This document shows positions 5,772-17,306 of a stretch of 64,000 nucleotides of DNA, one piece after another (within the stretch, counting starts at the first letter, position 1; each line of letters opens with the position of its first letter). Origin of the DNA: Christensenellales bacterium (GTDB taxonomy: Bacteria; Bacillota; Clostridia; Christensenellales; UMGS416); contig JBMNEH010000001.1 in the NCBI GenBank assembly GCA_050948665.1, positions 1,723,813-1,787,812 of the forward strand, read 5' to 3'. A program made the translations under genes and the position numbers. The notes under the pieces are model-generated. The model saw nothing but the letters and a program-made list of their open reading frames with translations. It was not told where the DNA came from and did not search any database.

Positions 5772-6088
5772 CTTTGGTTTCCATTCTTCTGATTGCCTAT
5801 ATCATAAACAAACACCTGTTTTGATTCACCAGATATTATGATGATTTTTTTACATTTTTTTGAACCCTTTTCGTGCGGATTTTCTATTTCATGAGCGACA
5901 AAAGGCTCCATGGCACGACGATATGAATCGCGGCGGAGCCTTTTTCATTTAACCCTTCTGTCTCCTAACAAAGTATAAGGCGTGCCTTTTTAACAAAGAG
6001 GCATGCGTTTTATGATCTTTCCGTAAAAGCTCAGGGATGTGGACGCCATAACACCGGAAATCGGCTGAAACCCGGGGGCATCTCTATG

Positions 6089-7069
6089 CTAATACTTGAT
6101 AAACTTTTCCCCCGGAACATTGCAGATAAAGCATTTGTCCGGACGGACCTTCTCAATGTTTCCGCAGACAGGGCACAGATAATAGAAAACCTCTTCGGTC
6201 TGATCCAGATTTTCCAAGGCATCTTTATAAAGCTTCGCGTGAACCTCTTCCGCCTTCATAGCAAAAGTAAAGGCAATATGCGCGGCCTTATTCCCTTCCG
6301 CATCGGCTTCCTTCACAAAACCAGGATACATTTCCTCGTATTCATATGTTTCACCAGCAATAGCGTCCACCAGATTTTCCGCAGTTGTGTTCACTTTTCC
6401 CGCAAGCTCGAATTCTTTAAGCGCGTGCAACGTCTCGGCATCAGCGGTTGCTTTGAATAATTTGGCCGCATTCATCTTACCGTCTTTTTCAGCTTTTTTT
6501 GCGTATGCCAGGTATTTTCTGTTGGCCTGGGATTCTCCGGCAAATGCCTCCATCAGATTCTTCAACGTTTTGTTTTCACTCATTGTATTATCCTCCTTAT
6601 TTTCTTTCAAAGATTCCAGTAATTCTTCCGCTGCCGCTTTGGGGAAACCCTCAGGCTGTTGTTGGTCGATCAAGGTCTTAAGAAAATCTATGGAATTGTC
6701 ACTTTGCGGAAGCATAAATCCTGCTTCCCTGATAATATCCTCGGCCATGATTTGATTGGATTTTTCAATGGCCACTGCCAACTTCCCGGGTAATGCGGAA
6801 GCAATACACTCCTGTTCCGTCTTGCTACGCAAAAGTGTTCTAAGAACTTTGATGACTTCTTCGGTTTTGGGCTGCTGTGGCGGATAAACTTCGGGCACCA
6901 TAGATATAGCGCCGGATGGGCAGGCGTCCGCACAATCTCCGCAACCAATGCATTTGCTAACATCGATGACACTGTTCTCTGTATCTGTCGCCCCAGTAGG
7001 ACACACATAGAGACACAAACAATCTTTGGTGCATAGGCGTATATTTCTAACAGCGTATTTCTTAGTCAT
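6089..7069 (-). CDS. Ferredoxin (2x[4Fe-4S]) - linker - rubrerythrin fusion protein
   Basis: The N-terminus carries CIGCGDCADACP plus a second Cys cluster. The C-terminal 164 aa are a full rubrerythrin (NLMEAFAGESQANRKYL, EEVHAKLY) with a rubredoxin-like tail (CPVCG...CFIC). Confidence 0.85.
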   Translation of the reverse strand: MTKKYAVRNIRLCTKDCLCLYVCPTGATDTENSVIDVSKCIGCGDCADACPSGAISMVPEVYPPQQPKTEEVIKVLRTLLRSKTEQECIASALPGKLAVAIEKSNQIMAEDIIREAGFMLPQSDNSIDFLKTLIDQQQPEGFPKAAAEELLESLKENKEDNTMSENKTLKNLMEAFAGESQANRKYLAYAKKAEKDGKMNAAKLFKATADAETLHALKEFELAGKVNTTAENLVDAIAGETYEYEEMYPGFVKEADAEGNKAAHIAFTFAMKAEEVHAKLYKDALENLDQTEEVFYYLCPVCGNIEKVRPDKCFICNVPGEKFIKY

Positions 7070-7740
7070 TATAATGACCTCCCCTCAACCTTTTCGAATT
7101 TCCAATTCGGCACCTTACAGACAGGGCAAACCTCCGGCAAGCTATCCCCTATGTATATAAAACCGCAAATTGTACAGACATGAACACCGGTGTTTTCCAG
7201 TATGGCGTCGCCCTTCCTCTGATATCGGGTCAAAAGAGACTTCAAAACCCGTGTAACCTTCTCACTCCAAACCAGAGCGCGGAGCGCGCCGCGATCTTTG
7301 GTATCGATAGCTATAGCATTTGCGTTCGTAAAACCTTGTTCAAGATCTTTTTCAATCAGTTCCATCAGTTGGTTGAAATCCGGGTTCTCGGCAGGTAGTG
7401 AAGCGTCTTTGAAAAAACCGGCCAGTTCGGAAAAGAGAGCCGCCTCCTTCGGCTTGTACTGCTTTTCACAGCCTCGAGCCAGATTCGTGCAAAGGACGCT
7501 GACCTCAAGCGGAGAAAGCCCCCGCATATCAGTCGTCCGCTCTGCAACGGGTTTTTTCTTCTTTTCAGAAGACACAGTTCCGCCTTGCTTTTCAAATTCC
7601 GCTTTTGTCGCCCCGCAAAGAGGACAAACCCAATCAACCGGCAGGTCTTCCCACTTTGTGCCCGGTATAATGCTTGCTTCCGGGATGCCCTTTGCCTCAT
7701 TATAAATGTAACTGCAAATAGTGCATACATATTTACCCAT
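7069..7740 (-). CDS. Rubredoxin-domain protein with a second C-terminal Cys4 knuckle
   Basis: N-terminal rubredoxin (CTIC...WVCPLCG) and C-terminal VCTICGF...CPVCKVP. The stop overlaps the downstream start (TAATG). Confidence 0.75.
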
Positions 7741-8068
7741 AACATTACCTCCTTTTATATTCTAACAAAGCAAAAGCCTTTTGTCTGTAACCTTGTTACA
7801 TAAAATGCAAATTCGCTTTATTGACTTTTGTTGAATTTGCTTTAAAAAAAGAACGGTTGGGCCACCGGCAGAAGCAGGCTCGGTAAACACAACGATATGT
7901 TTTGAAACTGTCGCTAAAGTAGCATTTTCCGCAACCTAAATACAAACTCTCATGGTGTCTCCGTAATCAGAGATATCCAACATCGCTTAACTCCATTGTA
8001 CAAACACTGCGTGGGTGAAAAAATAGTTCTTCACTCCCATCTGTAGGAGATTCGATAGAGATATTACT

Positions 8069-8428
8069 CTACTCGCCGCGCTTTTCGTAATACTGATGCT
8101 CATGGCAAACAGAGCCTGTTGACTTTAACTCTCCCTTCAGATAATTCTGAACAGCGGTTTTCGCATCGCCGGAAGCGCCAACGATGACCTCTACATTCCT
8201 ATCATTAAAGATATCGATCGCGCCGCCGCCCATGCCCCCGCTGATAATCACATTAACACCTCTGTCAGCCAGGAAATTGGGTAAGAAGCCGGGTCTATGC
8301 CCGGGGTTGGGTATAGATTCCTCCTTTATGATTTTTCCGTTTTCAATATCGTAAATCAAAAAATTAGCGCAGTGACCAAAGTGCTCCGTCACATTTGTAC
8401 CTTCACCGGCAATAGCGATTCTCAGCAT
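8069..8428 (-). CDS. NifB/NifX-family (dinitrogenase FeMo-cofactor-binding-like) small protein
   Basis: 119 aa with the family-typical signature EHFGHCANFLIYDIENGK...GGMGGGA. Confidence 0.8.
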   Translation of the reverse strand: MLRIAIAGEGTNVTEHFGHCANFLIYDIENGKIIKEESIPNPGHRPGFLPNFLADRGVNVIISGGMGGGAIDIFNDRNVEVIVGASGDAKTAVQNYLKGELKSTGSVCHEHQYYEKRGE

Positions 8429-8892
8429 TTCTTTTCCTCCATATTTTTATTTTCGATATATTCGTCCAGTATTTGTGCGGCATATGCAACAAACTCTGCG
8501 CAGGGACGCTTTTTGTAGTAAGACTCTGTTCTTTTCTCCGGAAGTGGCAAATCATGTTTTAATGTAAGGCCCAACAACTCTCTGCATATGATCGAACCGT
8601 TTTCTTCTTCGAACTTTTTTGCCATGGTCTGAATCAACGCATAGTGTTCATATTTCTTTGATTGATCCGCCGGGTCGGCATATCCATATTTCATTCCGGC
8701 AACCATAAACATTCCGGTGACGGCTCCGCACACCTCCCGAAGCCTTCCCATACCCCCGCCAAAGGACGATGATATTTTTAACGCGTCCTCCAAATCAAGG
8801 CCGGTTTCATCACAAAACGCGGCAAATACTGCTTGCGAGCAATTGTAACCCTTTTTAAACAAGTCTTTTGCGCAATCTGAATGTTTACTCAA
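8422..8892 (-). CDS. C_GCAxxG_C_C family protein
   Basis: Motifs YNCSQAV and EVCGAVTG. TTG start overlaps the stop of the upstream MBL gene (TTGA). Confidence 0.82.
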   Translation of the reverse strand: MSKHSDCAKDLFKKGYNCSQAVFAAFCDETGLDLEDALKISSSFGGGMGRLREVCGAVTGMFMVAGMKYGYADPADQSKKYEHYALIQTMAKKFEEENGSIICRELLGLTLKHDLPLPEKRTESYYKKRPCAEFVAYAAQILDEYIENKNMEEKKC

Positions 8893-9755
8893 TGCCTTTT
8901 CCTTCTCTGATTGTTTCCGACGTTTTCCCTATTGATCGTCAATTGATCGCCGGTCGATATGTAGCCGATCTTTTCTCCCATCACAGTTTTTAAATGGTGA
9001 TAGGGCTCAATGCCTGTGCAGTGACAGGTGTAAAAACGCGCCCCGGTCTTCAACAGAATATGTCCGATCTCAATTACAACATGCGGAGCCTCACTTTGTT
9101 TTGTTCCATTGCTGTAAAGATGAAATCCTCCGATTACGTAATCAGGCAGGCACCCTTTTTCCGCATAAAATTGATCGATAATGTTGACGATCCCGGTATG
9201 CGCACATCCCGCGACCAACAAAGTTTTTCCGTTTTCACTAATGATCAAGTTTTGCTCATGTGCAAAATCATCCCGCACAAAAGCATCTCCGTCTTTCATG
9301 AGCAAGTCAACATTACCTGAAGGAAGGTGTTTTGGGGATCCAATGCCGGAAAACAACACAAGTTCATCGTCAATTATAAATCTGTCACCACAGAATACAA
9401 ATCGTTCATTCGGCAACAACGATCTATCCAGCCCGATATATGCTTTATTGCTTCCCGGTCTGCTTGCGTAATACGGTCCAAATGCCTTTTGATGCAGGTA
9501 AATCTTTGCTTTTTTGTTGATATCAAGAAATGTTTTTAAGCCGCCGCCATGATCATAGTGGCCATGAGAAAGCACAGCCAGATCGATCCTTGTTAAATCA
9601 ACGCCCATTTTCTCAGCATTTTCGGCAAAAAGACCGCTTGCGCCCGTATCAAACAGGATCTTATGATTTTCAGTTTCAATGTAAAAACTTAAGCCGTGTT
9701 CGCTGCCAAGCTTCTCTGAAGATGCCGTGTTTTCAGATAACACCTTTACTATCAT
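8889..9755 (-). CDS. MBL-fold metallo-hydrolase
   Basis: HGHYDHGGG metal-binding motif, 288 aa. 4-nt overlap with the upstream ATPase gene. Confidence 0.85.
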   Translation of the reverse strand: MIVKVLSENTASSEKLGSEHGLSFYIETENHKILFDTGASGLFAENAEKMGVDLTRIDLAVLSHGHYDHGGGLKTFLDINKKAKIYLHQKAFGPYYASRPGSNKAYIGLDRSLLPNERFVFCGDRFIIDDELVLFSGIGSPKHLPSGNVDLLMKDGDAFVRDDFAHEQNLIISENGKTLLVAGCAHTGIVNIIDQFYAEKGCLPDYVIGGFHLYSNGTKQSEAPHVVIEIGHILLKTGARFYTCHCTGIEPYHHLKTVMGEKIGYISTGDQLTINRENVGNNQRRKRH

Positions 9756-10639
9756 GCTTCATTATCTTCACTTTCATCGAATAGTAACTGCATTGTGCTG
9801 TCATAAACCTCTTTTACGGCAGCTCCGGAAGGACAATCGATATCTACTATAGTCTGTCCGTTATTGATCGCTTTGACAGCCTCCGGGTCAAACGGTATCC
9901 TGCCAGTAAACGGCAGTCTTTTTTCTTTACAAAATTCCTCTATTTTTTTTGTATTAGCGGCATTGATGTCATGCTTATTGATACAGATTCCTATCTTGAT
10001 TTTGAAAGTTTCCGCTGTTTTTATGATGCGCTCCATATCGCTGATCCCCGAAACAGACGGCTCCGCAACAACCAGGACCATATCTACTCCGCTGAGGGAA
10101 GCGATAACGGGACAGCCTATACCGGGAGAGCCATCAATAATGGCCAGTTTAGCATCCGGACTCGCCATCGTTTTCATTTGTTTTTTTACTTCTGTAACGA
10201 GTTTTCCCGAAGTACCGCTTCCCATTTTCAACTGTGCTGTTGAAAAAATGTTGTCTCCGTCAGCATACAGCATCAGCTCTCCTGCAACGGCGGGTTTCAG
10301 GCAAGCCGCATTTGCCGGGCAGAAAGCTTCACAAACCCCGCAGCCTTCACAGGCATAAGGATCGACCATATAGCCATTCGTATTGGAAATAGCGTCGAAT
10401 CGGCAATACTTTTTGCATAATCCGCATTCAATGCATTTATTTGCGTCTATTTCAGATTTTGGCATGCCGAAATAGTCTGTCCATCTCGGATCGATATTTT
10501 GCGCCATGATCAGGTGAAGGTTAGGTGCGTCAACATCGCAATCGGCATAGGTTTTGGCACATGAAAGCTTGATAAAAGCGCTGGCTATCGTCGTTTTCCC
10601 GGTACCGCCCTTACCGCTGAGGATCAACAGTTGTTTCAT
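9752..10639 (-). CDS. MinD/CbiA-type P-loop ATPase with 2x[4Fe-4S] ferredoxin insert
   Basis: Walker A SGKGGTGKTT, then CIECGLCKKYC and CEGCGVCEAFCP. GGAGG SD. Confidence 0.85.
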   Translation of the reverse strand: MKQLLILSGKGGTGKTTIASAFIKLSCAKTYADCDVDAPNLHLIMAQNIDPRWTDYFGMPKSEIDANKCIECGLCKKYCRFDAISNTNGYMVDPYACEGCGVCEAFCPANAACLKPAVAGELMLYADGDNIFSTAQLKMGSGTSGKLVTEVKKQMKTMASPDAKLAIIDGSPGIGCPVIASLSGVDMVLVVAEPSVSGISDMERIIKTAETFKIKIGICINKHDINAANTKKIEEFCKEKRLPFTGRIPFDPEAVKAINNGQTIVDIDCPSGAAVKEVYDSTMQLLFDESEDNEA

Positions 10640-11498
10640 GCCGCACCTCCTTCATCACAGTCTTAAGCAACGAAGCAAATAATACGCGAAACCTGTCGTT
10701 TTCCCTTGCGGCTATTTTTGCGTCCGAATTAAGGCTTCCGAGTTCACTGTCAAACGGTATCCGGGCCAATATTGGAACATTGTTCTCCATACAAAATGCA
10801 TCCAAAGGGTTCTCTGCGTCAAGACACTTGTTCAGCACGACTCCGTGCGGCTTTTCAAACAGCCTTACCAAATCGTAGACCATGTTGAAATTATGAATGC
10901 CAAACACCGTCGGCTCAGCAACAAGTATGCAATAATCCGCGTCCTTGATACTTTCCATGACACTGCAGGCGCTTCCCGGTGGGCAGTCGATAAAAACGGG
11001 AAGCGCTTCATCTGCAATGCTCTCGTTAAGAAGATTTTTGATGATCGGTATTCCGATCGCTATGCCCGGATCCATGATCCCGGTATGAACGCTTACATTA
11101 CCGGAAACACCTCTCCGTACTACCCCGATTGACTTTTCTTCTTCACCGATTGCTTTCTCCGGGCAGAGAAGCATGCAACCGCCACAGGAGTGGCACACCT
11201 CCTCAAAAACATATGGTTTTTTCTTTATGAATGCAAGGGCATTAAACTTACAAAAGTCAATACATTTGCGGCAACCATTGCATAAGCTTTCGTTGAAGAC
11301 CGGTATTTTTACAGAAATGATCTCCTCGCGAACATTCTCGGGCTTAAAAAACAAATGACCATTGGGCTCTTCAACATCGCAATCAATATAGACGGATCTC
11401 TCGGCGATCGATGCTAAATTAACAGATACCAGCGTTTTGCCTGTACCGCCTTTGCCGCTCAGTATGGCGATTTGCACACCTTTATTTTCCACGCCCAT
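10611..11498 (-). CDS. MinD/CbiA-type P-loop ATPase with 2x[4Fe-4S] ferredoxin insert (paralog)
   Basis: Walker A SGKGGTGKT, then CNGCRKCIDFC and CHSCGGCMLLCP. The start is uncertain: ATG 11498 is chosen, the ORF-track TTG at 11531 or GTG at 11477 are alternatives. Confidence 0.78.
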   Translation of the reverse strand: MGVENKGVQIAILSGKGGTGKTLVSVNLASIAERSVYIDCDVEEPNGHLFFKPENVREEIISVKIPVFNESLCNGCRKCIDFCKFNALAFIKKKPYVFEEVCHSCGGCMLLCPEKAIGEEEKSIGVVRRGVSGNVSVHTGIMDPGIAIGIPIIKNLLNESIADEALPVFIDCPPGSACSVMESIKDADYCILVAEPTVFGIHNFNMVYDLVRLFEKPHGVVLNKCLDAENPLDAFCMENNVPILARIPFDSELGSLNSDAKIAARENDRFRVLFASLLKTVMKEVRHETTVDPQR

Positions 11499-11847
11499 GA
11501 AATCCCGGGTGAAAGTCTTTAAGCAAATCAAGCTTTTCAGCTAAAAATGCGTCAATGTTTTGCTGTACAGTTCCGGGAATAGATTTATAGATCAGTACCT
11601 CCGACCTGCGTAATACATCTTCCGCGTTTTTACCGCAGCGCGGTGTAAGCAGTGCCTTAACATCATGGTCGGCTAATACCTGCGCGGCCATGATCCCGGC
11701 TCCGCCCTGGTTGGCTGCAGCGGTGTTCTCAAGATAATTGCTTTCCTTTGTATCTGTATTATAGAGAAGGAAATAAGGGGCTCGTCCAAAAGAGGAACAC
11801 ACACCTGATCCCAAGTTTATCTCATCTACCGGTATTGCTATTTTCAT
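11482..11847 (-). CDS. NifB/NifX-family (FeMo-cofactor-binding-like) small protein
   Basis: 121 aa with SFGRAPYFLLYNTDT...GGAGIMAAQ. GGAGG SD. Confidence 0.8.
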   Translation of the reverse strand: MKIAIPVDEINLGSGVCSSFGRAPYFLLYNTDTKESNYLENTAAANQGGAGIMAAQVLADHDVKALLTPRCGKNAEDVLRRSEVLIYKSIPGTVQQNIDAFLAEKLDLLKDFHPGFHGRGK

Positions 11848-11895
11848 TTTGATCCTCCATTCTGATTGTTTTCAAATTCTCCCGGTTTCGGGTTC

Positions 11896-12255
11896 TTACG
11901 TAAAACCTCTGCCGCCTCTATGACGACGGCAGGCGCCCCTTCCGCATCCATTCTCTCTGCCGTTGCAGAGCAGATAATCGCCTCCTTCTATACAAAGCAC
12001 TTTCCCATTGACCAAGGACTCGGCAAGCTTTCTCCTGGCCATATCATACATTCCCTGAACGGTTGTGCGGGAAACGTTCATTTGATTGGCGCACTCTTCC
12101 TGCGTAAATCGATCTAAATCAATGAGTCTTATCGTTTCATACTCATCGACAGTCATATTTACCGTGTTTGCTGCATCTGCAAAGGAGTCAAGAGGTCCGA
12201 AACGATTACTGTCCGGAAGGTAGCAAACTCTTCTCCGTTTTCGGGGTCTTGGCAT
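11896..12255 (-). CDS. DUF134 (UPF0251) predicted DNA-binding protein with C-terminal 4-Cys tail
   Basis: MPRPRKRRRV...TVDEYETIRLIDLDRFTQEECANQMNVSRTTV (HTH-like), then VLCIEGGDYLLCNGRENGCGRGAC. GGGAGG SD. Confidence 0.85.
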   Translation of the reverse strand: MPRPRKRRRVCYLPDSNRFGPLDSFADAANTVNMTVDEYETIRLIDLDRFTQEECANQMNVSRTTVQGMYDMARRKLAESLVNGKVLCIEGGDYLLCNGRENGCGRGACRRHRGGRGFT

Positions 12256-12317
12256 TAAATCTCACCTCCCATAACAGCAGAAGTAACCGGAGCTCCTCTC
12301 GGTTACTTCTGCTGCTT

Positions 12318-12617
12318 TCACAGATTTTCCAGCTGTTTGTCAATGACATCCAATCGATTTTTCAGCACATCCCTCTGCTCTTGGAGCAGCTCTTTTTCTG
12401 TTTTGGAGGAGTCCTGATTTGTGGCAAACTCCCTTCCCAAACCACGTCCGTAGCCACGTCCGTAACCGCGTCCGAAGCCACGCCTGCAGCCACCCAAACC
12501 TAACCCCAGTCCAAGACCGGCACCGGTTTTTACTGCGTCAGCATCTGTGCATGAACCTAATCCTCTTCCCGTCATTGCTCCTGCGCCCATTGGGCCGGTT
12601 CCATCCCTTCTCGGCAT
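12318..12617 (-). CDS. DUF5320-like protein (RG/GY-rich segment plus coiled coil)
   Basis: MPRRDGTGPMGAGAMTGRGLG..., then GFGRGYGRGYGRG, then KELLQEQRDVLKNRLDVIDKQLENL. ATG 12617 has AAGGAGG 8 nt upstream; the upstream ATG of the track ORF has no SD. Confidence 0.75.
   Translation of the reverse strand: MPRRDGTGPMGAGAMTGRGLGSCTDADAVKTGAGLGLGLGLGGCRRGFGRGYGRGYGRGLGREFATNQDSSKTEKELLQEQRDVLKNRLDVIDKQLENL
12442..12489 (-). repeat. Four tandem 12-nt coding repeats (RG/GY motif)
   Basis: Plus strand reads CCACGTCCGTAG CCACGTCCGTAA CCGCGTCCGAAG CCACGCCTGCAG. The minus strand encodes CRRGFGRGYGRGYGRG. Confidence 0.85.
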
Positions 12618-12631
12618 ATCATTCACCTCCT

Positions 12632-12692
12632 TATCATTTCCGGCATATGCCGCTTTCAACTACTATTATACATCGTTTCCGGCATATGTCAA
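12632..12692 (-). promoter_or_regulatory. Near-consensus sigma-A-type promoter plus repeated operator-like element for the DUF5320/DUF134 operon
   Basis: On the minus strand: TTGACA (12692-12687), a 16-nt spacer, then TATAAT (12670-12665). An 18-nt direct repeat CATATGCCGGAAAyGATr lies at 12688-12671 and 12649-12632. CGGCATATGCCG (12641-12652) is a 12-bp palindrome. Confidence 0.6.
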
Positions 12693-13039
12693 CAACTATT
12701 TTTAAATTTTTTGATTTTTTTCAAAATGAGACAGTTGTTCTGTCTTCAACATATAAATCCGAGCCCGCGAGGAATTTGTAAATAAAGCAAATCACAATTC
12801 ATGATGATAGACATGTCGATGATTGGAAAATAACCATATCATATGGTTCAGCCTCTCGCCGATATAAATGGTTAAACACTTTAAACAAATCATATAAAAC
12901 AAAGAAGTTATGGTACAACGCCATAAAGGTCTGGATTTTAATTGCAGCGGCCTTCTTTTCTGAAACAATTCTTTTCCTTTCGATTTTCGAAAGAATGTGA
13001 TATTATTCTCAATGGTTAAGGATCCATAAGGAGTAGACA

Positions 13040-13852
13040 ATGGAGTTAAACAGTTGGGGGCTTGCGCTGACATTATCGTTGCTTGCCGGACTTTCTACGG
13101 GACTGGGCGGATTATTCGTTCTTTTTTTAAAAAATGTGAATACAAAGCTATTGTCGATCTCCCTTGGATTTTCAGCAGGAATAATGATATATATCTCCTT
13201 TATGGAAATCCTTCCGGAAGCAAAATTGCAGCTTGTATCAGAGTTGAGTGAAAGTGCCGGCGGATGGATCACATTGGCGTCATTCCTGGCAGGCATTCTA
13301 TTGATCGCAGTAATTGATAAACTGATCCCCTCTCATGAAAATCCCCATGAGATCCGCCAAATCCATGAAGTTTGCCAATACAGTGACAGTACAACAAAGC
13401 CTCATCTTATGAGGACAGGTCTTTTAACCGCGGTTGCAATAACTATCCATAATTTCCCAGAAGGCATGGCAACGTTTATATCAGGGATCAGCCACTATAA
13501 GCTGGGAATAGCAGTCGCAATTGCCGTTGCCATTCACAATATCCCGGAAGGGATTTCCGTTGCCATACCTATTTATTGCGCAACAGGAAACCGGCGGAAA
13601 GCTTTTTTCTTTTCACTGCTATCAGGAATAACCGAACCGCTGGGCGCGGTTATAGCCTTCTTATTCCTTGCCCCTTTTTTAAGCGAATTGCTGTTGGGTA
13701 TGCTTTTTGCGGCGGTCGCCGGGATAATGGTCTATATTTCCTTTGACGAACTCTTGCCGACAGCACAGCAATGCGGTGAACATCATTTGGTCATCTATGG
13801 ATTATTCGCTGGGATGCTTGTTATGGGAGTCAGCATGCAGCTCCTTCTGTGA
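13040..13852 (+). CDS. zupT: ZIP-family zinc transporter ZupT
   Basis: 270-aa multi-pass protein with two HNFPEG/HNIPEG motifs typical of ZupT. AAGGAG SD. Confidence 0.88.
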   Translation: MELNSWGLALTLSLLAGLSTGLGGLFVLFLKNVNTKLLSISLGFSAGIMIYISFMEILPEAKLQLVSELSESAGGWITLASFLAGILLIAVIDKLIPSHENPHEIRQIHEVCQYSDSTTKPHLMRTGLLTAVAITIHNFPEGMATFISGISHYKLGIAVAIAVAIHNIPEGISVAIPIYCATGNRRKAFFFSLLSGITEPLGAVIAFLFLAPFLSELLLGMLFAAVAGIMVYISFDELLPTAQQCGEHHLVIYGLFAGMLVMGVSMQLLL

Positions 13853-13890
13853 AAATTCTTTACAGCATCAATACTATTTCGAAAGTTACT

Positions 13891-13921
13891 CGCCGGCAAA
13901 ACCTGTTCGCCGGCGTTTTTC
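13891..13921 (+). terminator. Rho-independent terminator of zupT
   Basis: CGCCGGC (13891-13897) pairs with GCCGGCG (13909-13915), then TTTTT. Confidence 0.6.
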
Positions 13922-14150
13922 GTCTCATTTATTTGCACACTTCTGCAAAGAGGAGACATCGTGGCAATTTATTGATAAATGCAAATTTGGGGAATTAAAC
14001 AGAAAGATCAGTCCGTATTTACCAAGACAATCACTCACTTCGTCTATACTGCTAACAATGTCTCAGTCAATCATAGAATTTCAACCCTGACAACTGTTTT
14101 CAAGCACATATGTAACCTATATAAAATTCTTTGATTCCAAAAAACAGTTT

Positions 14151-17100
14151 TTATCCCACTACCAATTTATTTGTCTTTTTAAGAAACTTCGCCGGGATTG
14201 GGCGATCCAGGTGCCAAATAATATTCATCGGCTTAGAACCTGTGTGTGCCACATAACTGGCCGTGCCGAGATAGGTGTAAGCCTCCGCACTATTTGTGAT
14301 TCTATCTGTTTTGAATTCGCGGACAAACAACAAAACCTTTATACCCCTATCCCTATGATAAATATAGCGCTGACCAGTGGGAGAATCCGCAGCAGTAGTA
14401 CTCTGACTCTGCCAATGGAACAGGCTTTCATTTATAGAATAATCGTTGTACATTGTCGTAGGCGAGTAATCTTTATCGGATTTATTCAGTGTTACAAAGA
14501 ACACATCCAACTGCTTTTCAGGCAACCACTTGACCCCCTCGCGTACCGTGTTAGGTTTCATGAAATCCATAGCCACCAGCAATTGATCACGTGTATAGGT
14601 ACAATGCAAATCCAACGGACAATCAAATCCTAAATCAACAGGCTCATCGATAAAATCGATTTGTTCGTACCGATATTGTAGCAGATTCATTAGCTCATCT
14701 ATCAGTGTAGTGCTATCAGACAGAGCCGAAAGGTTGCCCAGCACCTTTTCATCGTCCCAAGACTCTGCGCTTTCGCCCCAAACAGTGATGTAAAACATTT
14801 GAAGCATGCGCCTCTCCGCATCGCTAAAAGCCGCAAAATCCGCATTATCTAAACGAGGCAGGATATCTAGCAAGAAAGATATCCAGCGCCTGGAATCAAT
14901 CACGGCAAGGCGCGCAAAAGCCTTAGTAAGTATTTCCTCCGCAGGCTCCTCGAACTCTTCAATCATATCCGCTCTGGCGCAGAGACGTGAGAAGGATGTG
15001 AACTTGTAAATTGCTCTTGGATCTAAATGATAGTAATACAAAAAGTTCTTCAAGTTCAGTTCTAACCCGCTGTCCTCTCTAAAAGTGGCAACACGAGAAA
15101 CCAAGCCTGCTGTATTTCCATAGGAAGCCCGGATGTTATCAAGGATATATTTAGCTGCCTTCTTTTCCAGTTGAATGTAGCAGCCTTTTGGTACAGAGAT
15201 AAAGCCATCCTTGATTTCGTGCGTCACGCTTCGAGTGGTATTGCTCAACAGTGCTGCGAACTTATCCTCAAAACTATATTTTTTATTTGCCTGACCGATA
15301 AAATCCAGAACGGTCAAACATTCTTTATCTTCAGCCAAACGTAATCCACGACCCAATTGTTGCAAAAATACAGTCAGAGATTCTGTGGGTCGCAAGAAAA
15401 GAACAGTATTAACTTCGGGTATGTCCACACCTTCGTTATAGATATCTACAACAAAAATAAAGCGAATTTCTCCGGACACCAAGCGCTGCTTAGCATTTTT
15501 TCTTTCCTCATCTGGGGAAGCTCCTATCAGAAACATGGAAGGAATATTATGCTCATTGAAATAACGACACATAAATGCAGCATGCTCAGTAGAAACACAG
15601 AAGCCAAGACCTTTGACATCATTGATATCCGTCACGTATTTCAACAGAGAATCTATAACCAAATCGGCACGACGATTGGCAGTTGCGCCGCTGAGGGTAT
15701 AAACTTTAGTCAACTCACCTTTATCATAACCGCCAGCGCTCCACTTTAACATGTTCAGGTCGACCGTATCGGTAACACCAAAGTACTGGAAAGGACTCAA
15801 CAGTTTACGATCTATGGCTTCAGGAAGACGAATTTCAGCCGCAATACGATTATCGAAATACGGCAAAATACTCTTCCCGTCCATACGCTCAGGAGTTGCG
15901 GTCAGCCCAAGGAGAATCTGCGGCCGATAGTACTCTAAGAGTTTCTGATATGAGGGTGCCGCTGCATGGTGAAACTCGTCTACAATGATATAGTCATAGA
16001 AATCATCTGCAGTCTTCATGGTAAAATCCCGGGAGTTAAATGTCTGAATGGATATGAATAAATTTTCAATGTCATTTGGCTTGTGACTGCCAACAAACAG
16101 CTCTCCAAAGTTGGCATCCTTAAGAACAGCACGAAAAGTGTACAAACTCTGTTTCAAAATCTCCTCACGATGAGCTATGTACAGCAAGCGACAAGGTTTT
16201 CCGGAATTCTGCTTACGAAAGTGCTTATAATCCAACGCAGAGACAACTGTTTTCCCGGTACCAGTGGCCGCCACCACCAAGTTGTGATTATGGCCTCGTA
16301 CTTTGCGTTCTGCCTCCAGCTTATCTAAAATTTCCTGCTGATATGGGTACGGCATAATGTCCATAGTGTAGATATCAGGGCTACTTCCATCCGCATGCTT
16401 TTCAGCCTTTAACGCGCGAGCTAGACGTTCTTTTTGATCCTCAGAATAATACTCAAATTCATTAGAATTCCAGTAGCTTTCAAAGGTTGCTTCGATTTTA
16501 TCGATAGTCTCCGGAAGGTCCTTCTTTGTAACCTTGACATTCCATTCCAATCCGCTTGAAATAGCGGTGTTGGAAAGATTGGAAGAACCAACATAAGCGG
16601 TAGTAAAACCGGTATTACGATAGAACACATAGGTCTTTGCGTGGAGTCGCGTGCGCTTCGTATCATAACTCACCTTAATTTTAGTGTTCAGTAATTGACG
16701 CAGTTCTTCAATAGCCCTCACATCGGTAGCGCCCATATAGGAAGTGGTGATAATCCGTAGCTCGCCGCCATTCATGGTAAACTCTCGTAACTCGTCCATC
16801 AAAAGACGCAGACCACTCCACTTAATAAAGGAAACCAGCATATCAACGCGATCCGCAGATACGATTTCCTTCTTCAATTCGGTGTACATTTGGGGTTCAT
16901 GTCTTGCACCAGTGAATAAAGAGCTTTGTGCGATAGATGTTTCAGGGCGGTTCAAATCAGCCGCCGTCTTACCAACTATCAGACGAGGATCATTTTCTCT
17001 CAGAAGAGCAAGAAGCTGCTCTGCGCGCTGGTCAACGCCCAGCGCGGCAAAGTCTGTTTCCTTTGTAATGCTTTGAATTAATTCTATTATTTGATTGGTG

Positions 17101-17306
17101 AGCATGATTTGATCAGAGATATCCCCACCATTGTCAATCATGTTATCCAGGCCCTTTTGAACCACATCAACCAAATACTGCGTCAGGATTTTAGAGGCTT
17201 CCGCCTTATCAATGGGCGCAACTGCCTTACGGGCTTCCGGAATCTCCGCAAGATCGCTGTTCAGCAGATTATTGATAACTTGTTCGTAAAGACCGTATTC
17301 TAACAT
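14151..17306 (-). CDS. HKD (PLD-family) nuclease - SF2 (ResIII/DEAH) helicase - DUF3427-like C-terminal domain protein
   Basis: Single HKD motif LHAKTYVF...GSSNLS (aa 221-245). Walker A ATGTGKT (346-352), DEFHH (443-447), LTATPER (468-474), QQLGRGLR (649-656). C-terminal about 150 aa with FVTLNK...FHWQSQ...LLFVRE...YLG...PMNIIWHL. Confidence 0.85.
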   Translation of the reverse strand: MLEYGLYEQVINNLLNSDLAEIPEARKAVAPIDKAEASKILTQYLVDVVQKGLDNMIDNGGDISDQIMLTNQIIELIQSITKETDFAALGVDQRAEQLLALLRENDPRLIVGKTAADLNRPETSIAQSSLFTGARHEPQMYTELKKEIVSADRVDMLVSFIKWSGLRLLMDELREFTMNGGELRIITTSYMGATDVRAIEELRQLLNTKIKVSYDTKRTRLHAKTYVFYRNTGFTTAYVGSSNLSNTAISSGLEWNVKVTKKDLPETIDKIEATFESYWNSNEFEYYSEDQKERLARALKAEKHADGSSPDIYTMDIMPYPYQQEILDKLEAERKVRGHNHNLVVAATGTGKTVVSALDYKHFRKQNSGKPCRLLYIAHREEILKQSLYTFRAVLKDANFGELFVGSHKPNDIENLFISIQTFNSRDFTMKTADDFYDYIIVDEFHHAAAPSYQKLLEYYRPQILLGLTATPERMDGKSILPYFDNRIAAEIRLPEAIDRKLLSPFQYFGVTDTVDLNMLKWSAGGYDKGELTKVYTLSGATANRRADLVIDSLLKYVTDINDVKGLGFCVSTEHAAFMCRYFNEHNIPSMFLIGASPDEERKNAKQRLVSGEIRFIFVVDIYNEGVDIPEVNTVLFLRPTESLTVFLQQLGRGLRLAEDKECLTVLDFIGQANKKYSFEDKFAALLSNTTRSVTHEIKDGFISVPKGCYIQLEKKAAKYILDNIRASYGNTAGLVSRVATFREDSGLELNLKNFLYYYHLDPRAIYKFTSFSRLCARADMIEEFEEPAEEILTKAFARLAVIDSRRWISFLLDILPRLDNADFAAFSDAERRMLQMFYITVWGESAESWDDEKVLGNLSALSDSTTLIDELMNLLQYRYEQIDFIDEPVDLGFDCPLDLHCTYTRDQLLVAMDFMKPNTVREGVKWLPEKQLDVFFVTLNKSDKDYSPTTMYNDYSINESLFHWQSQSTTAADSPTGQRYIYHRDRGIKVLLFVREFKTDRITNSAEAYTYLGTASYVAHTGSKPMNIIWHLDRPIPAKFLKKTNKLVVG

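Follow-up and report, generated by a model that had tools for sequence, protein, structure and literature searches.

How strict anaerobes make iron-sulfur (Fe-S) clusters and other metalloclusters is poorly understood, and among the 'anaerobe-only' proteins without a defined role, few are as conserved as the ORP (orange protein) set. In Desulfovibrio vulgaris, Orp3 and Orp4 are MinD-like proteins with two [4Fe-4S] motifs each, Orp5 and Orp8 each consist of one Nitro_FeMo-Co domain (with Orp8 a homologue of the Mo-Cu-sulfide 'orange protein'), and Orp9, or MrpORP, has an Mrp/NBP35 domain fused to a Nitro_FeMo-Co-type domain (PMC6345978, PMC8359166). The five associate physically in a single complex of Fe-S and Mo-Cu-S proteins, Fe-S clusters are passed from MrpORP to Orp3 and Orp4, and transcription depends on sigma-54 and on OrpR, which has a PAS domain with a redox-sensitive [4Fe-4S] cluster (PMC6345978, PMC8359166). 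A further relative is IssA of Pyrococcus furiosus, a thioferrate Fe-S storage protein, the domain model of which used the nuclear magnetic resonance (NMR) structure of MTH1175 as template (PMC5524996). Here we describe an operon of eight genes in a 64,000-nucleotide stretch of a Christensenellales bacterium (contig JBMNEH010000001.1, positions 1,723,813 to 1,787,812); the whole stretch is called the window below, and all coordinates refer to it.

Judged by its sequence, the operon represents the ORP gene cluster, which is specific to anaerobes, in its Bacillota/Clostridia form. An earlier note on this DNA had left it with no assigned function and its protein families with no experimentally defined role, overlooking the work on ORP (PMC6345978, PMC8359166) and IssA (PMC5524996). 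The operon comprises the following genes, in the order of transcription (aa, amino acids).

12318 to 12617, minus strand: DUF5320 protein, 99 aa (Pfam PF17253, 99 bits)
11896 to 12255, minus strand: DUF134/UPF0251 protein, 119 aa (Pfam PF02001, 72.6 bits)
11482 to 11847, minus strand: NifX-like 1 (NifX1), 121 aa, single-domain Nitro_FeMo-Co protein of the MTH1175/TM1290/ORP type (Pfam, PDB sequence search)
10611 to 11498, minus strand: ATPase 1, deviant-Walker-A ATPase of the MinD type, first paralogue, with a 2x[4Fe-4S] ferredoxin insert (Orp3/Orp4-like)
9752 to 10639, minus strand: ATPase 2, ATPase of the MinD type, second paralogue, with a 2x[4Fe-4S] ferredoxin insert (Orp3/Orp4-like)
8889 to 9755, minus strand: metallo-beta-lactamase (MBL)-fold metallo-hydrolase, 288 aa, with an HGHYDH motif (Pfam Lactamase_B, 51 bits)
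8422 to 8892, minus strand: C_GCAxxG_C_C putative redox-active Cys protein, 156 aa (Pfam 139 bits, TIGR01909 94 bits)
8069 to 8428, minus strand: NifX-like 2 (NifX2), 119 aa, stand-alone homologue of the MrpORP C-terminal 'Di-Nase' domain

The link to D. vulgaris was provided by NifX-like 2, which matches the C-terminal domain of MrpORP: it aligned with positions 265-365 of the NCBIfam MrpORP model NF041136 (E=6e-32, 111 bits versus a cut-off of 450). Its motifs are EHFGHC, PGHRPGFLP and CHEH, and its matches in the PDB are TM1816 (7e-16) and PH0822 (3e-15). NifX-like 1 sits at the place of ORP in the loci of Thermodesulfobacteriota and is about 34% identical to the Desulfovibrio gigas ORP (2wfb, 7e-8), although it is closer to MTH1175 (1e-17) and TM1290 (2e-14). 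It may be regarded as the counterpart of Orp8, with putative Mo-Cu cluster binding. MTH1175, its nearest sequence, also connects it to the IssA clade, but the long Gly-rich C-terminal tail that is the hallmark of that clade (PMC5524996) is missing, and NifX-like 1 ends in a short HPGFHGRGK.

Each of the two ATPases, about 29% identical to one another, has GKGGTGKT and a pair of CxxCxxCxxxC motifs. Their identity to the pair that adjoins ORP in Thermodesulfobacteriota loci is 31-44% (33-41% for ATPase 1 and the genes downstream of ORP). A PDB search with ATPase 2 returned no solved structure of the architecture of MinD with an inserted ferredoxin.

Paired MinD-type ATPases with two [4Fe-4S] motifs each, a single-domain Nitro_FeMo-Co protein, a homologue of the MrpORP C-terminal domain, and confinement to anaerobes are shared with the D. 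vulgaris Hildenborough cluster (orp3-orp4-orp5 / orpR / orp7-orp8-orp9). Other features differ. The D. vulgaris genes form two divergent sigma-54 operons, whereas a single sigma-70 operon is predicted here, with putative control by DUF134; the enhancer-binding protein OrpR has no equivalent among the scanned genes (6089-17306); and of the two-domain MrpORP, which joins a CXXC-bearing Mrp/NBP35 P-loop domain to a Di-Nase domain, there is the Di-Nase half only, encoded by a separate gene, without an Mrp domain in the window. The DUF5320, MBL and C_GCAxxG genes are additional, and the DUF134 protein belongs to a Cys-rich clade, in contrast to the ORP-linked Thermodesulfobacteriota clade, which lacks the conserved cysteines. 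In these respects the operon would be new relative to the ORP cluster.

Gene calls and family assignments are robust to the checks that we made. All eight proteins passed the gathering cut-offs of their Pfam models, with Nitro_FeMo-Co scores of 73 and 83 bits for the two NifX-like proteins and matches to CbiA plus Fer4 in both ATPases. The eight minus-strand open reading frames (ORFs) ran from 12617 down to 8069 as described before, and the same eight genes were found in independent gene calls on three public contigs with an identical DUF134 protein. Along the operon, the first two genes are followed by gaps (62 and 48 nt) and the next five by overlaps (17, 29, 4, 4 and 7 nt); the first overlap, between NifX-like 1 and ATPase 1, becomes 11 nt instead of 17 with the other called start, and the longest ORF of ATPase 1 starts at a TTG (11531). 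Two features back the DUF5320 start (ATG, 12617): conservation of the N-terminal MPRRDGTGP and a ribosome-binding site, AAGGAGG. With this compact spacing, the eight genes are probably a single, co-translated operon. The earlier note had thus been right about the eight same-strand ORFs and their junctions, the protein families, the P-loop and ferredoxin motifs of both ATPases, the probable coupling in a single operon and its near-consensus promoter.

Conservation of the gene set was assessed in 150 related loci overall. A set of 80 genome loci, anchored on the DUF134 protein, covered Clostridia, Negativicutes, Desulfotomaculia, Syntrophomonadia, Synergistota, Anaerolineae and Armatimonadota; presence was counted in the 46 of them with flanks of at least 700 bp on the upstream and 5.5 kb on the downstream side. 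NifX1 plus both ATPases were present in 31/46 loci, as was NifX2 (31/46), DUF5320 stood upstream of DUF134 in 29/46, and a separate Mrp/NBP35 gene was found in 26/46. MBL (15/46), an IscU-like gene (10/46), C_GCAxxG (4/46) and the rubredoxin/rubrerythrin pair (3/46) were less common, which makes MBL a frequent accessory and the last two rare ones. The fullest layout was that of Anaerosporobacter faecicola (DUF5320 - DUF134 - IscU-like - NifX1 - ATPase - ATPase - MBL - Mrp - C_GCAxxG::NifX2), and one locus (L062) alone had an architecture identical to that of the window. Dozens of genomes in several phyla share the gene order, more than expected by chance, and the co-occurrence of DUF134 with NifX-like and MinD-Fer4 genes across anaerobes, which had been suggested as a check, is strongly positive.

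A search anchored on D. gigas ORP yielded 58 loci, mostly from Thermodesulfobacteriota, with ORP orthologues 54-73% identical to the query. Their typical order, DUF134 - ORP - MinD/Fd - MinD/Fd - NifX2-like - IscU-like, is colinear with the window and contains the shared succession DUF134 - ORP - ATPase - ATPase - NifX-like. The Methanothermobacter MTH1175 locus reads DUF134 - NifX2-like - Mrp - MTH1175 - MinD/Fd - MinD/Fd, and subsets of the gene set were found in Methanosarcinales, Brocadiia and DPANN archaea. Because the operon is colinear with the ORP and MTH1175 loci, we regard it as a member of an anaerobe-wide ORP-type gene set. A common operon of Clostridia is now tied to the ORP system, and the unit spans Bacillota, Thermodesulfobacteriota and methanogens.

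Some of the related loci deserve separate mention. The Oscillospiraceae metagenome-assembled genome JAGPMA01 (bin_114) has four copies of the DUF134-NifX-ATPase cluster on separate contigs (L011, L018, L036 and L039), which could reflect true paralogy or a mixed bin. The Bacillota-type cluster was also seen on contigs labelled Leptospira (L047), Veillonella absiana (L012) and Cyclobacteriaceae (P0010). These contigs are probably mis-binned or contaminant; the upstream region of L047 is near-identical to that of Herbinix (L042), and that of L012 to that of Anaerosporobacter (L014).

The promoter region of the operon contains the following elements.

12687 to 12692, minus strand: -35 hexamer TTGACA, overlapped by candidate operator site 1 (12/12 consensus together with the -10)
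12675 to 12690, minus strand: candidate operator site 1, GACATATGCCGGAAAC, over the -35 and the spacer (exact match to GRCATATGYCRKAAAY)
12665 to 12670, minus strand: -10 hexamer TATAAT after a 16-nt spacer (TATAAT or TATACT kept at the equivalent place in relatives)
12636 to 12651, minus strand: candidate operator site 2, GGCATATGCCGGAAAT, within the 12-bp palindrome CGGCATATGCCG, 3' of the -10 and 5' of the ribosome-binding site
12626 to 12632, minus strand: ribosome-binding site AAGGAGG, 5' of the DUF5320 ATG (AAGGAGGTGA kept in relatives)

The sigma-70 promoter TTGACA-16-TATAAT (12692 to 12665) matches the consensus at 12/12 positions, and it is overlaid by a repeat that had previously been overlooked. 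The 16-bp unit GRCATATGYCRNAAAC occurs twice in the operon promoter, and these are the sole exact matches in the 64-kb window; with up to two mismatches, four matches were found versus 0.72 expected. On the inferred transcript, site 2 spans approximately +7 to +22, and its centre is 39 bp from that of site 1, which is also the commonest spacing in relatives (24/53).

The arrangement is kept across phyla in the form GTTATTGACATATGYCRNAAAC - N4 - TATAAT - about 11 nt - GRCATATGYCRNAAAC - AAGGAGG. The sequence TTGACATA around the -35 was present in 43/50 related upstream regions, and a pair of CATATG cores 30-45 bp apart in 52/71 related upstream windows, versus 4/1508 control windows drawn from the same loci; the commonest spacings of such core pairs were 39, 36 and 38 bp. 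A literature search with the operator sequence found nothing relevant, and the twin operator appears to be new.

DUF134 is the sole helix-turn-helix (HTH) protein in the conserved unit and is therefore the likely binder of the operator. Its score (72.6 bits) is well above the gathering score of PF02001 (27), and identity across phyla is 65-88%. In the AlphaFold2 model, residues 31-90 form the HTH core at a pLDDT of 80-92, for which the best Foldseek matches were SigR region 4, DeoR and ECF sigma region 4, at 0.5-1 Å root-mean-square deviation; a PDB sequence search found no homologue below E=0.01.

Five cysteines, C11, C55, C97, C104 and C109, are invariant in an alignment of 20 sequences and 96-100% conserved across the 80 loci. 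The '4-Cys tail' of the earlier note does not stand as a conserved unit, as C88 is variable among relatives. The ORP-linked DUF134 proteins of Thermodesulfobacteriota have one Cys left of the five-Cys set, and they also have a different recognition helix (SRxTFGR versus (S/A)RTTVQG in the clade of the window). The five-Cys signature of this clade appears, from the sequences compared, to be new.

The recognition helices and the promoters vary in ways that may be connected. In a group of Desulfosporosinus and Peptococcaceae loci (L029, L068, L072, L073 and L025), the DUF134 helix reads ...TVQR..., and site 1 is CATATGTTCAAAA or TATATGTT..., not CATATGYCRNAAA. The Thermodesulfobacteriota DUF134 promoters have another palindrome at the equivalent place, of the TGAGC-N4-GCTCA or GAGCATATGCTC type. 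This palindrome, a pattern set post hoc, was found 5' of 11/40 DUF134 genes versus 13 matches in 765 kb of background.

DUF134 proteins are numerous and some are naturally joined to NifX-like domains. At E<=1e-3, the family comprises 3551 clusters at 50% identity in a representative library of 1.8 billion proteins. Among the top 150 representatives, 37 have at least 200 aa, and all ten of the scanned long representatives (230-310 aa) were fusions of DUF134 with Nitro_FeMo-Co. Six fusion sequences that we read had a domain of either the NifX1 or the NifX2 type and kept the Cys tail. These natural fusions, which appear to be new, point to the sensed ligand. A further oddity of the family is P0200 (1879 aa), with 18 repeated matches to DUF134 residues 3-50 in an unexplained repeat architecture.

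Paralogous DUF134 copies were also found ahead of other gene sets (Mrp alone, MBL alone, a permease set, a membrane protein), suggesting a small sulfur/metal regulon. In L059 (4136-5591) and L053 (11391-12409), a paralogous DUF5320-DUF134 pair or DUF134 is followed by a two-gene membrane permease and, in L059, by a small Cys-rich protein with a CGGC motif, read as a CGGC-domain protein. In L044 (10879-11949), a paralogous copy precedes a membrane protein that looks YeeE/YedE-like. All of these identifications, the permease included, were made by eye.

In the literature searched, DUF134, UPF0251, DUF5320 and the related COG numbers were mentioned only in passing. No function or operator for DUF134 was found there, the founding ORP paper (Fievet 2011) being outside the reach of the search. 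DUF5320, the gene ahead of DUF134, begins with the conserved peptide MPRRDGTGPMGxGxMTGRGLGxC, continues with a linker rich in Gly and Arg and has at its C-terminus a helix, KELLQEQK..L..RL..IDKQLENL, of coiled-coil-like appearance (alignment of 52 homologues); that it is a co-regulator is a guess. From the Thermodesulfobacteriota loci, we take Orp7 to be the DUF134 protein of D. vulgaris.

Taken with the ORP homology, the operon probably serves ATP- and ferredoxin-coupled handling of metalloclusters, under feedback control by DUF134 as an IscR-like autoregulator. By homology, the Orp3/Orp4-like ATPase pair would be the ATP-dependent, electron-carrying core, acting with two NifX-fold proteins that hold metal-sulfur clusters non-covalently or via few ligands. 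NifX-like 1 would correspond to ORP, Orp8 and MTH1175, and NifX-like 2 to the [3Fe-4S]-binding C-terminal domain of MrpORP. ATPases and NifX-fold proteins together would build, hold or hand over clusters of the Fe-S or heterometal-sulfide type, with the MBL hydrolase and the C_GCAxxG thiol protein as optional helpers.

Expression is predicted to start from one strong sigma-70 promoter that holds two 16-bp candidate operators. By analogy with known autoregulators, a DUF134 dimer would bind both sites and repress its own operon, and C11, C55, C97, C104 and C109 would ligate an Fe-S cluster or a metal; alternatively, DUF134 may read the loading state of the adjoining NifX-like protein. Transcription would then track cluster supply or redox state, like IscR on isc or OrpR on Desulfovibrio orp. 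A carrier of this kind with a Cys-rich regulator had already been put forward from the letters of the sequence, and it fits the homology with Desulfovibrio ORP, the Mrp/NBP35 and IscU-like genes in relatives, and the DUF134-NifX fusions.

The likeness to IscR concerns a small HTH regulator near the start of the operon (DUF134 is second, after DUF5320), Cys ligands C-terminal to the HTH, which are putative in DUF134, and sites over the core promoter. It would also include feedback that ties transcription to cluster supply, as is established for IscR. The folds differ (winged-helix Rrf2 in IscR versus the sigma-region-4-like HTH of DUF134), and so do the Cys spacings, which vary in DUF134. We also looked in DUF134 for an IscR-like C-x-C-x-C-x2-H motif and rejected it: the His is present in only 51/80 sequences and the spacing varies, leaving a loose analogy.

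Extended to the whole family, the proposal becomes more tentative. DUF134/UPF0251 proteins might be unrecognised, widespread sigma-region-4-like factors of anaerobes that sense metal-sulfur cluster status, through a cluster of their own or a NifX-fold domain, and autoregulate ORP-type machinery via a twin operator; we think this possible, but would not yet bet on it. Should DUF134 turn out to sense clusters in this way, a function could be given to thousands of proteins now annotated as 'predicted DNA-binding protein (UPF0251)', the DUF134 regulon would reveal under which conditions the ORP machinery is switched on, and an IscR-like circuit would have been built from unrelated parts around ancient ORP-type machinery. 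The gene set itself is ordinary for anaerobes; the handles gained are the 16-bp candidate operator, the candidate regulator with its five-Cys signature and the natural fusions of regulator and NifX, which make a long-standing puzzle testable.

Several points weigh against this interpretation. Neither an Mrp/NBP35 nor an IscU-like gene was found in the 64-kb window, although many relatives have them. The model of DUF134 is confident for the HTH core only, the Cys tail being predicted at a pLDDT below 50; Cys-tail spacing varies among relatives, and a structural Zn site is equally possible for these cysteines. The sign of control (holo repression, apo repression or activation) cannot be read from the sequence, and DNA binding, metal content and expression of the proteins of this clade are proposals that come from sequence comparison. 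The pairing of the TVQR helix with CATATGTTCAAAA hints at covariation of protein and operator within a clade, but is confounded by phylogeny, and the Thermodesulfobacteriota palindrome was a pattern drawn from the inspected data that covers only 11/40 DUF134 genes. Finally, for the ORP complex itself, the authors of that work favour a link to cell division.

Among other explanations, the one that survives best is that a different factor, such as DUF5320 or an unlinked regulator, binds the twin motif, or that the motif is a conserved promoter or 5' untranslated region element, and that the role of DUF134 lies elsewhere. As the assignment of DUF134 as the binder comes from sequence comparison, and as the -35 hexamer lies inside site 1, so that part of the conservation of site 1 is promoter conservation, this deserves consideration; site 2, in the transcribed leader, could also act as RNA. 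On the other hand, copies of the GRCATATGYCRNAAAC unit flank the transcription start, favouring recognition at the DNA level over an RNA role, and the region 5800-13300, which includes the leader, had no match to an Rfam family. The operator pair tracks DUF134 even where DUF5320 is absent (L001, L050 and L053), standing directly 5' of DUF134 there; another palindrome takes the equivalent place in the divergent DUF134 clade; and the conserved unit offers no HTH protein other than DUF134. We therefore consider another binder unlikely.

Still less support remains for a positioning or cell-division device, in which the MinD-like ATPases would be spatial regulators, for example of septum placement, and the NifX-like proteins accessory. 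This is the hypothesis of the authors of the work on the Desulfovibrio ORP complex; morphological defects of an orpR mutant and polar localisation of MrpORP have been reported (PMC8359166, PMC6345978). The ATPases do belong to the MinD/ParA family, with MinD as their best non-ferredoxin PDB match, but they score 29-53 bits against the MinD NCBIfam models (TIGR01968/TIGR01969), the cut-offs of which are 202-213, each has a two-cluster ferredoxin insert, and no minC or minE gene adjoins the operon. Moreover, Fe-S biogenesis genes (Mrp/NBP35 and IscU-like) recur in the operon, NifX-fold proteins are fused to the regulator, and the cluster is found as well in methanogens and DPANN archaea, whose mode of division is different. 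A division device is thus improbable, and metallocluster handling under DUF134 control stays the preferred interpretation.

We give a similarly low rank to an oxidative-stress module that would repair or protect Fe-S clusters together with rubredoxin and rubrerythrin, with DUF134 as an oxidant sensor. In its favour are two genes directly 3' of the operon, the C_GCAxxG redox protein within it and the Cys-rich regulator.

7069 to 7740, minus strand: rubredoxin / rubrerythrin-C-domain protein (Pfam)
6089 to 7069, minus strand: ferredoxin-rubrerythrin fusion (Pfam)

The 328-nt gap between NifX-like 2 and the rubredoxin gene holds no convincing terminator, only a weak 4-bp stem with a U-tract (fold z-score -0.29), and the pair may be co-transcribed with the operon. 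However, it adjoins the operon in 3/46 loci, the closest relatives only, C_GCAxxG is present in 4/46, and the D. vulgaris orp genes are off, not on, at raised redox potential (PMC8359166). The pair is a lineage-specific neighbour, and the oxidative-stress link that the earlier note had drawn from it is not supported.

A nitrogenase link was rejected, in agreement with the earlier note: the NifX-like proteins share Pfam PF02579 and the general job of holding complex metal-sulfur clusters with NifX, NafY and the NifB C-terminal domain, but score 16.9 bits versus a cut-off of 112 for TIGR02663 (nifX) and 15.5 versus 344 for TIGR01290 (nifB), and there are no nif genes (nifHDK, nifEN) in the window.

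The PDB matches of the MBL protein, 2p4z (4e-37) and TM1679 (5e-22), are both uncharacterised; in some relatives its gene lies directly 3' of the DUF134 gene. In the Anaerosporobacter faecicola isolate, a 274-aa ORF (L014, 14533-15357) fuses C_GCAxxG_C_C to a NifX2-type domain, which ties C_GCAxxG to NifX2; in the window the two are separate genes with a 7-nt overlap. The rubredoxin gene product (7069-7740, minus strand, 223 aa) has an unusual architecture, with an N-terminal rubredoxin, a C-terminal rubrerythrin-type rubredoxin-like domain and a middle part of about 130 aa without a Pfam match.

On the other side of the promoter, a divergent gene for a ZIP-family metal transporter (13040-13852, plus strand) was considered as a part of the system and rejected; it lies next to no related locus, and its adjacency here is probably coincidental. 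Further upstream, a 1051-aa protein (14151-17306, minus strand) combines a PLD-like nuclease, a ResIII/DEAD helicase and DUF3427 and has a restriction- or defence-like look. Its gene lies in a stretch (6-18 kb) with a GC content of 0.43-0.47, versus 0.48-0.54 in the remaining window.

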